DNA of 64,000 bases from assembly GCF_001677475.2 (NCBI RefSeq), contig NZ_CP012498.1; one strand, written 5' to 3'. The position numbers were made by a program. Of the stretch, positions 26,301 through 35,300 are shown in pieces; positions within the stretch are counted from its first letter, which is position 1, and the number at the start of each line of letters is the position of its first letter. This DNA comes from Escherichia coli (lineage in GTDB: Bacteria; Pseudomonadota; Gammaproteobacteria; Enterobacterales; Enterobacteriaceae).

Positions 26301-29300
26301 TTTTATTAAAAATGCGATTTATCTCACAAAAAAAATAATCATATAAACATGAAGGAGTTAATGGATAAATGCATATATCTTTAAAGTATTGTGCAGATGG
26401 TTATTCTTGTTTTTGTTTACTCGAATGGTCGTTTTGTCTGATGTGAGTTTGTTGATGCGTATTAATTATACGCCAGGAGCTTAAGTTAAGTATTGAAATC
26501 AGTAGGCTGTACGGTTAAATTTTTGTTTCAGCGTAGCTGATTCATCGTTATTCGAATATGACCAACGCACCTGTAATTGTTGTTTCTCTTGGAGCCCCCA
26601 CTTTTTGGTGGGGATTTTTTTATTCCGTGTGTCGTTAAAGGGATACGCCCGGAAAACGTAATTGTTCCACACTAAGAAGAATTAAGCTGAGCAAGTTATT
26701 GCATCCTGTCTTGTACAGAATTGTTCGATTTCAGACACAAAAACAGAACAATTCTGGTGAAGTCTCATCAGCGAACTGGATAAAAAGCATCCTCAGTGTG
26801 GTTTGTTTTCCAGACACCTGATCTTACCCAGCAATAGTGGACACGCAGCTAAGTGAGTAAACTTTCAGTCAGAGGTGACTCACATGACAAAAACAGTATC
26901 AACCAGAAAAAACACGTAAACAGCATTCGCCTGAATTTCGCAGTGAAGCCCTGAAACTTGCTGAACGCATCGGTGTTGCTGCCGCAGCCCGTGAACTCAG
27001 CCTGTATGAATCTCAGCTCTATGCGTGGCGCAGCAAACTGCAGCAACAGATGACCTCGTCTGAGCGTGAAAGTGAACTGGCCGCTGAAAATGCCCGCCTG
27101 AAGCGGCAACTGGCGGAGCAGGCAGAGGAACTGGCTATCCTCCAAAAGGCCGCGGCATGCTTCGCGAAGCGCCTGAAATGAAGTATGTCTTTATTGAAAA
27201 ACATCAGGCTGAGTTCAGCATCAAGGCTATGTGCCGCGTGCTCCGTGTGGCCCGCAGCGGCTGGTATACGTGGTGTCAGCGGCGGACAAGGATAAGCCCT
27301 CGTCAGCAGTTCCGTCAGCACTGCGACAGCGTTGTCCTCGAGGCTTTTACCCGGTCAAAACAGCGTTACGGTGCACCACGCCTGACGGATGAACTGTGTG
27401 CTCAGGGTTACCACTTTAACGTAAAAACCGTGGCGGAAAGCCTGCACCGTCAGGGGCTGAGGGCAAAAGCCTCCCGGAAGTTCAGCCCGGTCAGTTACCG
27501 TGTACACAACCTGCCTGTGTCAGAAAATCTGCTGGAGCAGGATTTTTACGCCAGTGGTCCGAACCAGAAGTGGGCGGGAGACATCACTTACTTAGGGGTT
27601 CCGCGCCCATTTCCTCCAAAAGTTCCACCATTTGAATTAAACTGTATATTAATCATTGTGTTAGTGTGATTTTTTGATGATGAGGTTTAAGACCGTTGTT
27701 TTTCACCATCTCATATGTTGTGAAATCTGAGACTGCATTTATTGGTCTGAAATGAGGTATCTAATATCGTTTTGGTGTTATTTTGATAGCACTTATCCTC
27801 AAAAACGACTTTTGATACCAGTCAGGACGCATTTTTCTAAAATGCCAACCGTAGAAATTCGCAACAGATATCCGGTTTGACGGTAAAAAACAAAAGCTGG
27901 CAGGAAATTATATTTAATTCATATAGATAATCAACATTCCTGGAACTTTTGGAGGAAATGGGCGCGGAATCCCTTACTGGAAGAAGTGGTGTACATCATA
28001 ACGGAGACAGTGAAAAAACGGCGATGCAAATCAGGTGGAGAGGGATGTATCAGCAGTTACTGAAGGTTGACCTGCTGAAGTGCATCCTGTGCGGGAGTCA
28101 GATGCATTTTACGGGGCTGAAGCGGGGCTATCGTTACAGATGCATGAGCCGCTGGCGCGAATGTGGGTGTGCGGCTGAGGGGCGTAGAGGGGAAGTTGCG
28201 TCCATTTTGAGGGAAATGGAGCGAAAAATCGCCACCGATACCCTGAATCAATCAATGCCAGCAATTAAATTGGTGATACTTATTACGTGACGTTCTGGCG
28301 GTGTTGAATAACCATCCATTTTTGGGTGTTTTTTTAATCTTTTTGGGGTTTGAATTCCTATCGATTGAGTTAGGTGACCGCCTGGACGGTCACTTCTGAG
28401 AAAAGGCATTTACACAGAATCCTAAACAGGCTCTTTCAAGGGGCCGGTTCATAAGCACTTTGCCTCAATATTCAAGATAAGATTTATGTTCAGTACGGCA
28501 GATATATAAAATGAAACTCAGCTTTAAGGTTTCAGTTCACAAACTTTATGATGTGATATGGTATCTTATTGAAAAATGTTGTGTTAAATAAGAATAATGT
28601 TATTCCGACCTAATCATTCCTTACCCCCTCTGTACTCTCAGAGATTTTTTATTCCCACAAGAAATAATAAAATAAAAATGCGATTCCGGCACCACTATTT
28701 ACATCATTATCCCTGCCATACAGTACCGGAATCGCATTAATATCATATTACATTTTTTATATCTGGAATAATGGGGAAAAATTCTGTTGCGAAATAATAT
28801 GTAAATCGTGTCTTCTGATGTTTTTTGTTATGAGTATAAAAATGGTAACACAGGGGATATAAATTACCGACTTTCTCCTATTCTATCATGAATTAAAAAA
28901 TCTATAAATCTACTTAAGGCATACGTGAGTGGAATATTATTTCGCCAGAACACACCGACGCTGCCTTTCTGTTCTATCTTTGGTAGGTTGAGTATCACCA
29001 GTTGTCCCTGGCTGGCATAACGTTGCGCCAGGCGTAATGACAAAATAGAGATCATATCGCTGCTTTGTAACAGGTTGGTACTGACGTTCATCGACGCCGA
29101 CTCAATCGTGTTTTCTGGCAGCATTACGCCGTGGTCTACCAGCGCATTATCAATACTGATGCGAATGGGGGTACCCGTCGGCCAGACTATCCAGCGCCAG
29201 TTGGCAAGATCATTCCAGCTGAGGGTGGCGTATTTCGCCAGTGGGTGCTCTGGGCGGGCGACAAAGCATACTGGCTCGGTGTACAGCACCTGATAATTCA

Positions 29301-32300: not shown

Positions 32301-35300
32301 CGCGTTATTAATTTGGGAGAGAAAAAATGACTCAATACGTATTCGAACCTCAAGCGCCCGTTACCGTACCGGTTGTTGGCAGTGATGAACAATTCCCCGT
32401 GCGCCGCGTTTACTGCGTCGGGCGTAACTATGCCGCCCATGCCCGCGAAATGGGCTTTGATCCGGATCGTGAACCGCCATTCTTCTTCTGCAAACCGGCG
32501 GATGCCGTTGTTCCGGTTGCCGCAGGCGAAACGCTGGCGCTGCCGTATCCGGCGCAGACCGATAACTACCATTACGAAATTGAACTGGTGGTGGCCATTG
32601 GTAAAAAGGGCAGTGATATCCCGCCGGAAAACGCCCATGAATATGTCTGGGGTTATGCCACGGGTCTTGATATGACTCGCCGTGACCGTCAGATGGAAAT
32701 GCGTCAGATGGGCCGCCCGTGGGAAATCGGTAAAGCGTTTGATCTCTCAGCGCCCATAGCGCCGCTGCACAAAGCCAGCGATATCGGCGGTATTGATAAT
32801 GCGCCAATCTGGTTACAGGTTAACGGCGAAGATCATCAGCGCAGCGATATTCGTCATCTTATCTGGTCAGTGAATGAAACCATCAGCTACCTGTCTGGTT
32901 TCTTTGAACTGCAACCGGGTGATCTGATCTTCACCGGTACGCCGGAAGGGGTTGGCCCGGTAGTGAAAGGTGATGTGATCACGGGTAACGTCGAGGGCTT
33001 AACCCCTATCGCGGTGAAGATTGTCTGAGGTGCATGATGAAGCTGTACAGTTTTTTTAATAGTTCAGCATCGTACCGGGTACGCATTGCGCTGGCGCTGA
33101 AAGGCATTAATTACCAGACCGAAGGGGTGAATATCCGCATTGGTCAGCAAAATGAACTGGCCTATCGGCGGATGAATCCGGTCGGGCTGGTGCCGACGCT
33201 GCTGACTGACGAGGGGGAGTCACTCGGTCAGTCGCTGGCGATTATTGACTGGCTGGAGAGGCACTACCCGCAAGTTCCGCTGGTGCCGCAGGAAGAACCG
33301 ACCCGCAACAAGGTGCTGGAAATTGTCTATGCCATCGCTTGTGATATTCATCCATTGAATAACTTGCGCGTGCTGCGCTACCTGACCGAAGAACTGAACA
33401 TCAGTGAAGAAGAAAAAAAACGTTGGTATGCGCACTGGATCCAGCAAGGGTTAAGCGCGGTGGAACAACTGTTGCGCCAGAACCAGTCGGGGCAATTTTG
33501 TGTGGGCGAGACGCCGACGCTGGCAGATTGCTGCCTTGTCCCGCAGTGGGCGAACGCGCTACGCATGAACTGCGATTTGAGCGGGTATCCACGCTGCAAA
33601 GCGGTGTACGACGCCTGCACACAGCTGCCAGCGTTCATTGCTGCAGCGCCAGAAAATCAACAAGATAAAATTTCAGCCTGACCAGGAGAACTATAATGAC
33701 GAAAGTGACACGCGCAGTAATTGTGGGAGGCGGGATCGGCGGTGCGGCAACTGCGCTGTCACTGGCCCGCCAGGGGATCAAAGTGGTGCTGCTGGAAAAG
33801 GCGCATGAGATCGGTGAGATTGGTGCGGGCATCCAGTTGGGGCCAAATGCGTTTTCGGCGCTGGACAGCCTCGGCGTCGGCGAAGTTGCCCGCCAGCGCG
33901 CGGTGTTTACCGATCACATTACCATGATGGATGCGGTGAACGCCGAAGAAGTGGTGCGCATTGAAACCGGGCAGGCCTTTCGTGACCATTTCGGCGGCCC
34001 TTACGCGGTGATCCACCGGGTTGATATTCACGCCTCGGTGTGGGAAGCGGTACTGACGCATCCGGACGTGGAATATCACACCTCCACCAACGTCGTGGAT
34101 ATTCGCGAGACGGAAGACGATGTAACCGTGTTTGACGATCGCGGCAATAGCTGGACCGGCGATATTCTGATTGGCTGTGACGGCGTGAAGTCAGTGGTGC
34201 GCCAGAGCTTATTGGGCGATGCGCCGCGTGTCACCGGACATGTTGTCTACCGTGCGGTTATCGATTGTGCCGATATGCCGGAAGATTTGCGCATTAACGC
34301 ACCGGTACTGTGGGCGGGGCCGCATTGTCACCTGGTGCATTACCCTTTGCGCGGCGGCAAGCAGTATAACCTGGTGGTAACATTCCACAGCCGCCAGCAG
34401 GAAGAGTGGGGCGTGAAGGATGGCAGTAAAGAGGAAGTGCTCTCTTACTTTGAAGGGATTCACCCCCGTCCGCGCCAGATGCTGGATAAACCGACTTCAT
34501 GGCGACGCTGGTCAACCGCTGACCGTGAACCGGTGGCGAAGTGGGGAACGAAGTGCATAACGCTTGTGGGCGATGCGGCCCATCCGGTGGCGCAATATAT
34601 GGCGCAGGGAGCCTGTATGGCGCTGGAAGATGCAGTAACGCTGGGTAAGGCGCTGGCGCAGTGTGAGGGTGATGCGGCGCAAGCCTTTGCGCTGTATGAG
34701 TCGGTACGAATTCCGCGCACTGCGCGCATCGTCTGGTCGACCCGTGAAATGGGGCGGGTTTACCACGCCGCAGGGGTAGAACGCCAGGTACGTAATCTGC
34801 TGTGGAAAGGGAAATCGCAGGTAGATTTTTATCGGAGTATGGAGTGGCTGTACGGCTGGAAAGAAGACAACTGTCTGCAACCAAGATAATACGACATAGA
34901 ATTCGTTAAATACCATGGAGCCTGTACATAGATTTGTGTAATTATCTTATTTTAATATGTATAATTCTACATTAAAAGAAGGTTAAATTATGGGCAAAGA
35001 TGTTACAGGCTCTGGTTAATGAACCACGGCAGCCTGACGGCTGCAAATTGAAAACCGCCCTGTTCTGAACTGCACCCCAAAAGTTGGACACTCAACGAAG
35101 TAAGGTGCAGTTTTTTATGAGTAAATATTCTCTCAGCTTTAAGCTTGAGGTTGTGCAGCACTATCTTTCCGGCATGGAAGGGCAGAAAGCGACTGCAAAG
35201 CGTTTTGGTATCGATCACAGTGCCGTTCGTAAGTGGACTGCTGCCTGGAAGCTTCATGGCGAAGCCGGACTTACCACCCGGCATTTCGCCTATTCTCCCG

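Follow-up and report, generated by a model that had tools for sequence, protein, structure and literature searches.

We analysed a 64,000-nucleotide stretch of contig NZ_CP012498.1 from Escherichia coli (hereafter the window), which is part of a large IncF-type enterohemolysin virulence plasmid and carries, at 28864-34889, a complete set of six genes for the uptake and breakdown of 3-hydroxybenzoate and gentisate. To judge from its sequence, this cluster is most probably a catabolic operon of the mhbRTDHIM type, inducible and aerobic, that travels as mobile cargo on the plasmid. An earlier, sequence-only reading of this DNA had proposed a complete pathway in the gene order of the Klebsiella mhb cluster, and both proposals stand: all six open reading frames (ORFs) are uninterrupted, every enzyme is encoded together with a transporter and a regulator, with family scores far beyond chance, and single colinear high-scoring segment pairs join the cluster to those of K. 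oxytoca, K. michiganensis and K. aerogenes. The clusters of Salmonella, Citrobacter and E. coli likewise align to it in one colinear piece. The genes are laid out as follows.

28864-34889, mhbR on the minus strand, divergent from mhbT-mhbD-mhbH-mhbI-mhbM on the plus strand: the whole mhb cluster, six intact ORFs.
28864-29790, minus strand: mhbR, LysR-type regulator, 308 amino acids (ORF with Pfam HTH_1 and LysR_substrate).
29913-31271, plus strand: mhbT, predicted major facilitator superfamily (MFS) transporter of the aromatic-acid/H+ symporter type, 452 amino acids (ORF, Pfam MFS_1, RefSeq name).
31283-32311, plus strand: mhbD (gtdA), gentisate 1,2-dioxygenase, 342 amino acids (TIGR02272, PDB 2D40).
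32327-33028, plus strand: mhbH, fumarylpyruvate hydrolase of the FAH family, 233 amino acids (Pfam FAA_hydrolase, PDB 6J5Y and 4MAQ).
33037-33681, plus strand: mhbI (maiA), glutathione-dependent maleylpyruvate isomerase, a zeta-class glutathione S-transferase (GST), 214 amino acids (TIGR01262, PDB 6JWK); an alternative start lies one codon upstream, at 33034 (215 amino acids).
33696-34889, plus strand: mhbM, 3-hydroxybenzoate 6-monooxygenase dependent on flavin adenine dinucleotide (FAD), 397 amino acids (NF006021, PDB 4BJY).

The window is 98-99.5% identical over most of its length to pOkiPb01695_1, CP012499-CP012501, AP025748 and similar plasmids, and all six mhb genes are intact in each complete plasmid inspected. 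The mhb block has a G+C content of 54-56%, against 37-40% in its flanks. The surroundings are those that the sequence-only reading had described, an insertion sequence (IS)-dense segment with toxin genes and plasmid maintenance functions: they include ehxCABD, encoding EhxC, EhxA, EhxB and EhxD (45697-52820), a ParE-type toxin-antitoxin pair (37215-37762), parA (56949-57659) and pieces of IS3-, IS21-, IS91- and IS66-family elements. AP025748 is the IncFIA/FIB conjugative plasmid of the cryptic-clade-I strain HH-P024, described by Okuno et al. 2023 (PMC10100065); the text and supplements of that paper do not mention the mhb operon.

Functions were assigned using NCBIfam equivalog models with curated cut-offs, Pfam gathering scores and matches to PDB entries, given in bits. 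MhbD passes the gentisate 1,2-dioxygenase model TIGR02272 (590.8 bits; cut-off 442.1), matches the E. coli O157:H7 enzyme (2D40) over its full length at ~96% identity (769.6 bits) and retains His104, His106 and His145, which we take to be the Fe2+ ligands of the 2D40 structure. MhbM scores 757.4 bits with the 3-hydroxybenzoate 6-monooxygenase model NF006021 (cut-off 459) and just 139 bits with the salicylate 1-monooxygenase model (cut-off 446). It matches the structures of 3-hydroxybenzoate 6-hydroxylase (3HB6H) from Rhodococcus jostii (4BJY and variants), a 35% identical enzyme, at 266 bits, and its conserved Y103, H212, Y216 and Q300 align to Rhodococcus Y105, H213, Y217 and Q301, residues that presumably have functional roles. 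MhbI exceeds the maiA model TIGR01262 (308.6 bits; cut-off 171), bears the zeta-GST motif SSxSxRVRIAL (here SSASYRVRIAL) and matches 6JWK at 233 bits and the maleylpyruvate isomerase NagL (2V6K/2JL4) at 165 bits; from the genomic context, we infer that its substrate is maleylpyruvate rather than maleylacetoacetate.

MhbH scores 189 bits with Pfam FAA_hydrolase, above the gathering score, has the metal motif E-x-E...D (E84/E86/D115) and matches 6J5Y at 378 bits and 4MAQ, a ‘putative fumarylpyruvate hydrolase’, at 252 bits. With MhbH, every NCBIfam equivalog model stays under its cut-off, so the substrate specificity of the protein rests on homology and context. MhbT is above the gathering score for Pfam MFS_1, and its best NCBIfam matches, PcaK (416 bits; cut-off 770) and TIGR00895 (376.5 bits; cut-off 418.55), are both below their cut-offs. 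It carries the motifs D34GFD37 and D82RFGRK, which we take to be typical of PcaK-type aromatic-acid symporters, an identical protein (WP_054484978.1) bears the RefSeq name MhbT, and the syntenic Klebsiella orthologues share 85-86% amino acid identity with it; we regard MhbT as a predicted transporter of the aromatic acid/H+ symporter family. MhbR is above the gathering scores for HTH_1 and LysR_substrate, with PcaQ, below its cut-off, as the top NCBIfam match.

Phylogenetic comparison with chromosomal homologues placed the cluster in a distinct, plasmid-only lineage inside the Escherichia clade. Over the compared core (28937-34883), the window allele has 95.5% nucleotide identity to the E. coli chromosomal allele, 93.7% to a second mobile allele found on an IncX1 plasmid and on enterotoxigenic E. 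coli (ETEC) contigs (the IncX1/ETEC-type allele), 91% to the cluster of E. coli E69, 89% to that of E. albertii, 81% to Citrobacter, 80% to Salmonella and 78% to Klebsiella. Both mobile alleles nest within the Escherichia clade in neighbour-joining trees of all three partitions. The resemblance to Klebsiella noted by the sequence-only reading is therefore one of organisation (colinear at ~78% nucleotide identity) and not of descent. A recent capture from Klebsiella or another non-Escherichia genus would account for the identical gene order and orientation, but the gap between 78-81% identity to Klebsiella, Salmonella and Citrobacter and 95.5% to the E. coli chromosome or 89% to E. albertii, together with the position of the mobile alleles in all three trees, already refutes it, and we give it practically no credence.

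The two mobile alleles are ~6% apart and share the same module boundaries (28862-35024) as well as two derived traits that occur in no chromosomal form, a 308-amino-acid MhbR with its own C-terminus and a distinct MhbT loop. They are sisters over mhbR-mhbH; over mhbI-mhbM, the window allele reaches 98.7% identity with the chromosomal one. Such mosaic divergence points to later recombination of the 3′ half of the window allele with an E. coli chromosomal copy. A codon-degenerate DNA probe for the mobile MhbR C-terminus found no match in 100,044 species-representative genomes, and an MhbT-based scan returned no relative closer than 93-95% amino acid identity; its top matches came from E. coli E69, E. 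albertii and a 9-kb contig of a metagenome-assembled genome (MAG). On these comparisons, we conclude that the cluster was probably captured once, long ago, from an unsampled Escherichia-like lineage and has since lived on plasmids. The 9-kb contig, JAIJJM010000061.1, belongs to a ‘Collinsella sp.’ MAG, in which it is probably mis-binned; its mhb genes are E. coli-like, with an internal deletion corresponding to window positions 32039-33426.

The MhbR C-terminus, ...NNIPLTYALSRFIDFLIHDRIGESR, is specific to the mobile lineage among 14 taxa compared. In both mobile alleles the 308-residue protein ends ...NNIPL(T/S)YALSRFID..., whereas MhbR of Escherichia, Citrobacter, Salmonella and Trabulsiella has 302 residues and reads ...NNETPS.... 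Chromosomal nucleotide homology ends 73 bp inside mhbR. We considered whether MhbR had been truncated or fused where the module was captured and rejected this: in the protein alignment the C-terminus is homologous though diverged, and it is common to both mobile alleles.

We searched complete E. coli genomes (n = 5,426) with an IS-free query (28864-32311) and found the cluster in 613 (11.3%). All 598 chromosomal copies are 90-95% identical to the window; among the 25 plasmid copies, 24 match at ≥99.4% and one, on the IncX1 plasmid CP144932, at 93.5%. The 618 matching records come from 613 genomes, so no more than 5 genomes can have it in two records, and the chromosomal copy is missing from most plasmid carriers. 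Exact window-type MhbT is present in 312 index blocks of public assemblies, exact IncX1/ETEC-type MhbR in 209 and the Arg-287 form of window-type MhbM in 1,459, and none of the three proteins was ever found on a contig >1 Mb. Hosts of mhb plasmids are E. coli that make Shiga toxin (STEC), ETEC and cryptic clade I strains, isolated from ruminants including cattle, from pigs and from food or produce.

The chromosomal cluster lies between yohJ and dusC in E. coli O55:H7, Salmonella and K. aerogenes. Since the site is the same in E. coli, Salmonella and Klebsiella, the yohJ-dusC locus is the ancestral, syntenic one of Enterobacteriaceae, and the plasmid copy stands apart from it. E. coli K-12 is among the strains that lack a chromosomal mhb cluster. 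In PLSDB, ~11 genuine E. coli plasmids with the cluster were found among 72,556 records; Salmonella and Klebsiella ‘plasmid’ records with the cluster are evidently pieces of chromosome. The sequence-only reading had called the linkage of this operon to toxin and plasmid maintenance genes unusual. This is true of plasmids overall, where it is rare, but the linkage recurs within a family of STEC, ETEC and cryptic-clade-I virulence plasmids, and 11% of complete E. coli genomes have this operon on the chromosome.

Plasmid-borne mhb is under purifying selection. The ratio of nonsynonymous to synonymous substitution rates (dN/dS) is 0.03-0.12 in 17 of 18 between-allele gene-pair comparisons; the exception, mhbM of the window against the chromosomal allele, has a ratio of 0.23 that derives from 9 nonsynonymous and 12 synonymous changes only. 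Polymorphic codons comprise 27 synonymous and 7 nonsynonymous in the window-type clade (8 copies), and 36 synonymous and 14 nonsynonymous in the IncX1/ETEC-type clade (10 copies), with no premature stops in either.

The module is bounded by IS remnants and non-coding sequence.

27949-28448, plus strand: IS91-family transposase fragment with a ‘GGGGCCGGTTC’ scar; an intact IS91-family element occupies the equivalent position in pOkiPb01695_1.
28449-28863, no strand assigned: left flank of the window-type module, AT-rich and non-coding, which is a partial, diverged copy of the multi-copy plasmid repeat found at 25514-26671 and 38831-40000.
34890-35024, no strand assigned: right non-coding tail of the mobile module, common to the IncX1/ETEC-type allele and ending at the tetranucleotide GAAC.
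35021-35065, plus strand: hairpin-containing terminal end of an IS91-family element, its upstream end facing mhbM.
35066-36506, plus strand: intact IS3-family element of 1,441 bp (Pfam HTH_28 and rve), with orfA (35084-35638) and orfB (35635-36474).
36507-36824, plus strand: continuation of the IS91-family 5′ remnant, with a small ORF, resuming after the IS3-family insertion.

The right junction of the module reads ...AATGAAC followed directly by the hairpin sequence CACGGCAGCCTGACGGCTG. The adjoining IS91-family end matches the intact element of pOkiPb01695_1 (19107-19466 of that locus) at 95.7-95.9%; the transposase of that element has Y2_Tnp and Zn_Tnp_IS91 domains, and its upstream end faces mhbR. 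The IS3-family element, which splits the IS91-family remnant and is flanked by a 4-bp target duplication (GTTC), is absent from pOkiPb01695_1, the closest plasmid. This geometry is compatible with, and does not prove, one-ended (rolling-circle) mobilisation by an IS91-family element at a GTTC/CTTG-type tetranucleotide. No composite transposon was found around the window copy: its flanks consist of IS91-family remnants, the unrelated IS3-family insertion and large inverted repeats of an unannotated AT-rich element, and an outer duplication was not found.

Transposition is directly apparent in the IncX1 plasmid CP144932, where the sister mhb allele lies in an 11,175-bp composite transposon (4542-15716). 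Two flanking 1,320-bp IS copies, 98.4% identical to each other and presumably IS2 from the look of their ends, are bordered by a 5-bp target duplication (GAATA). With the unit taken out, the rejoined junction is spanned by a restored ORF that starts MPRRQILSSEEQARLL..., which we take to be the N-terminus of a Tn3-family transposase (tnpA). In other contigs, the IncX1/ETEC-type allele has a heat-stable (ST) enterotoxin gene on one side and, on the other, a chaperone-usher fimbrial operon with fdnG after it. The proposal that the cluster is cargo thus finds support in the plasmid-only allele lineage, the IS-defined boundaries, the composite transposon of CP144932 and purifying selection on plasmids. 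In CP101802 and AP025748, matched in two pieces, disruption of the cluster by an IS was considered and rejected, the insertions being in the flanks and the six genes intact.

Two features lie in the strongly conserved mhbR-mhbT intergenic region.

29797-29812, no strand assigned: perfect palindrome ATAACC-N4-GGTTAT, 7 bp away from the start codon of mhbR; putative MhbR operator.
29871-29885, plus strand: 15-bp unit TACAAAAGAAACATC upstream of mhbT, adjoining a 5-bp deletion.

The palindrome occurs once in the window. From Escherichia to Serratia, the range over which the region is conserved, both half-sites are invariant (11 of 11 taxa) and the 4-bp spacer alone varies; we infer that this is the MhbR operator.

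The pathway itself follows the established gentisate pathway of Klebsiella, Salmonella and E. coli. MhbT would import 3-hydroxybenzoate by proton symport, MhbM (FAD, NADH and O2) would hydroxylate it at C6 to gentisate, and MhbD (Fe2+ and O2) would open the ring to give maleylpyruvate, which MhbI would convert with glutathione into fumarylpyruvate for hydrolysis by MhbH to fumarate and pyruvate. When substrate is present, MhbR, acting on the conserved palindrome near its own start codon, may activate mhbTDHIM. As for its history, the module would have passed from an Escherichia-like chromosomal yohJ-dusC locus into a plasmid-only lineage, now of two alleles, in which it was moved by IS elements, kept under purifying selection and supplied to hosts that mostly have no chromosomal copy. 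The phenotypic evidence is from relatives: 3-hydroxybenzoate is assimilated by E. albertii (PMC9145129), which has a cluster of 89% identity, and the orthologous Klebsiella and Salmonella clusters support its assimilation, according to literature cited in PMC3572157. GtdA is one of the proteins that O157 up-regulates in vivo in the rumen of cattle (PMC9135228, Table 1B), and gentisate dioxygenase is lineage-specific in metabolic models of enterohaemorrhagic E. coli (PMC3229490).

Several observations weigh against a fully working operon of this kind. Codon 34554-34556 of the window reads TGC, not CGC, placing Cys at MhbM position 287, six residues before the GDAAH FAD-binding motif, where 85 of 86 homologues and the Rhodococcus 3HB6H structure have Arg. 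The exact C287 protein is found in 30 index blocks of public assemblies, always next to the same IS3-family insertion, and is therefore a genuine sub-lineage marker and not a sequencing error; the R287 form bears the accession WP_000170150.1. The change may weaken growth on 3-hydroxybenzoate and should leave gentisate use intact. Inactivating mutations, which the sequence-only reading had named as evidence against its own proposal, are absent in the form of stops or frameshifts; this missense change at a near-invariant residue is the one finding that touches on them. Upstream of mhbT, between the gene and the operator region, every window-type allele shows a 5-bp deletion next to a 15-bp repeat of variable copy number, the repeat unit TACAAAAGAAACATC being present once in the window and two and three times in two other window-type plasmids with otherwise near-identical alleles. 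With the remodelled MhbR C-terminus of the mobile lineage, these changes mean that regulation may differ from that of the chromosomal operon. A scan of the mhbR-mhbT intergenic region for a sigma-70 consensus promoter gave no match, and consensus promoter and terminator scans found nothing above shuffled expectation; the missing sigma-70 match is expected for an activator-dependent promoter and so is uninformative, giving no positive support. A further Rfam scan of 24000-41000, covering the cluster, its surroundings and the AT-rich repeats, found nothing at the gathering threshold. Finally, both pathway oxygenases require O2, so the pathway is limited to oxygenated niches and restricted in the anoxic gut lumen.

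These points could be taken to mean that the cluster is a hitch-hiker that is no longer useful, its ORFs intact but its entry step crippled by R287C or its genes misexpressed, so that it persists only with the plasmid. The near-invariance of position 287, the 5-bp deletion with its unstable 15-bp repeat and the divergent MhbR C-terminus all fit this idea, as does the existence of p7v-like relatives (strains 10290, KS167_9B and HH154_1D) without the cluster, which is evidently dispensable for the plasmid. However, synonymous changes far outnumber nonsynonymous ones in the plasmid-only clades, with no stops or frameshifts in the 18 sampled copies, and the promoter deletion is common to the whole of a successful clade, with window-type MhbT in its 312 blocks. 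The R287C sub-lineage is itself present in 30 blocks, and even with a dead MhbM the genes for gentisate catabolism (mhbTDHI) would be intact. We therefore consider a useless passenger unlikely. Less probable still, in our judgement, is that the cluster is selected for removing phenolic acids, whether by detoxifying plant hydroxybenzoates or by consuming gentisate (2,5-dihydroxybenzoate) met in the host, and not for supplying carbon. The ruminant, pig and produce associations of the hosts, the rise of GtdA in O157 in the rumen (PMC9135228) and the repeated linkage to genes for Ehx, ST enterotoxin and fimbriae are circumstantial points in its favour; set against them, a full enzyme set leading to fumarate and pyruvate with an importer of its own is how a pathway for a growth substrate is built, and the orthologous clusters serve assimilation of 3-hydroxybenzoate in E. 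albertii (PMC9145129) and in Klebsiella and Salmonella (cited in PMC3572157). A mobile catabolic operon thus remains the reading that we prefer.

A second metabolic gene set accompanies the module: fdnGHI recurs beside mhb in both mobile allele contexts, for the window type usually a few kb away. In the window, the fdnG homologue (14175-17225, minus strand) is an uninterrupted ORF of 1,016 amino acids, with fdnH and fdnI at 12629-14162. Plasmid FdnG reads ...ARLCHGPTV..., with Cys at the selenocysteine-equivalent position, which we take to be that of selenocysteine 196 in E. coli FdnG. The plasmid FdnGHI would be a selenium-independent (Cys-type) formate dehydrogenase-N.

Niche adaptation, the role that the sequence-only reading had suggested for the cargo, is plausible. 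A more specific version, which we offer tentatively and think possible rather than probable, is that mhb and the neighbouring Cys-type fdnGHI together form a conserved ‘metabolic fitness’ cargo that is positively maintained on the livestock-associated virulence plasmids of STEC, ETEC and cryptic clade I. Hosts without the chromosomal locus would gain access to breakdown products of plant polyphenols (3-hydroxybenzoate and gentisate) in oxygenated mucosal or extra-host niches, and the cargo would help to keep virulence plasmids in the population. If so, the remodelled MhbR C-terminus and the variable 15-bp repeat would represent plasmid-specific regulatory tuning; and should the cargo measurably raise fitness on plants or in the gut of ruminants, this would be a case in which metabolic cargo co-selects virulence plasmids.

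The system shows no departure from the known mhb/gentisate system: the pathway is textbook knowledge, and RefSeq already annotates these plasmid copies. Of modest use is the picture at the population level, that of a plasmid-only Escherichia lineage that has transposed and is recurrently found beside fdnGHI and virulence determinants. In the literature searched, we found no paper discussing a plasmid-borne mhb lineage and none combining gentisate, Shiga toxin and a plasmid. The mhbRTDHIM cluster of Klebsiella pneumoniae/oxytoca M5a1 matches that of the window in its six genes and in their order and orientation, with conserved ATAACC and GGTTAT half-sites; its organisation, for use of 3-hydroxybenzoate via gentisate with the LysR-type activator MhbR and the transporter MhbT, is described in PMC3572157. 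The Klebsiella locus is chromosomal (yohJ-dusC) and ~78% identical in nucleotide sequence (85-86% in amino acids for MhbT), whereas the window copy is plasmid-borne with a 308-residue MhbR and derived C-terminus. The closest relative is the chromosomal gentisate cluster of E. coli O157:H7/O55:H7, with protein identities of 92.9-98.7%. It differs in location and flanks, with no homology outside 28937-34883, in encoding a 302-residue and not a 308-residue MhbR, and in the cytoplasmic loop of MhbT, which reads YVDTHFYLIESASVTKGS on the E. coli chromosome and is different in the window; relative to it, the plasmid allele also has the 5-bp promoter-region deletion.

The IncX1/ETEC-type module (CP144932, and the contigs with ST enterotoxin, fimbriae and fdnG) is likewise plasmid-only and linked to fdnGHI, and has in common with the window the boundaries 28862-35024 as well as the derived forms of the MhbR C-terminus and of the MhbT loop. 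The 3′ half of the window allele, which resembles the E. coli chromosome, has no counterpart of that kind in it, and its copy in CP144932 sits in a clean composite transposon, whereas that of the window is bounded by IS91-family remnants. A more distant comparison is offered by the nag genes of Ralstonia sp. U2, whose NagL is homologous to MhbI (2V6K/2JL4, 165 bits). There, plasmid-borne genes for gentisate ring cleavage form part of a naphthalene/salicylate pathway with a different operon architecture. To our knowledge, the nag genes belong to a different phylum-level background and have no association with virulence genes.

Repeats surround the module on both sides. Inverted repeats of ~1.2 kb (25514-26671 and 38831-40000), AT-rich, non-coding and 93-100% complementary, bracket a 12-kb segment containing mhb, and a partial third copy lies in the left flank of mhbR (28504-28829). 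The repeat is unannotated, present in 7-10 copies per plasmid and found in ~1,900 PLSDB records, mostly of E. coli and Shigella. Just outside the large inverted repeats are direct repeats (24996-25122 and 37862-37988) and two ORFs (25051-25236 and 37917-38255) that begin alike, MTLSVFITVISGHDKPQP...; one of these ORFs has a weak match to the IS66 C-terminal domain (26.8 bits, below the 30-bit Pfam cut-off), and both ORFs, which lie at the direct repeats, look like IS66-related debris. In one assembly, a window-type mhb module stands beside lldPRD-like genes (1665-5241) encoding a lactate permease, a GntR-family regulator and a dehydrogenase dependent on flavin mononucleotide, a further metabolic cargo carried by this sort of contig. 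In NZ_AP042631.1 (pOkiPb01705), the cluster is reversed at a similar position relative to near-identical bovine OkiPb plasmids, which suggests an inversion between the flanking inverted repeats.

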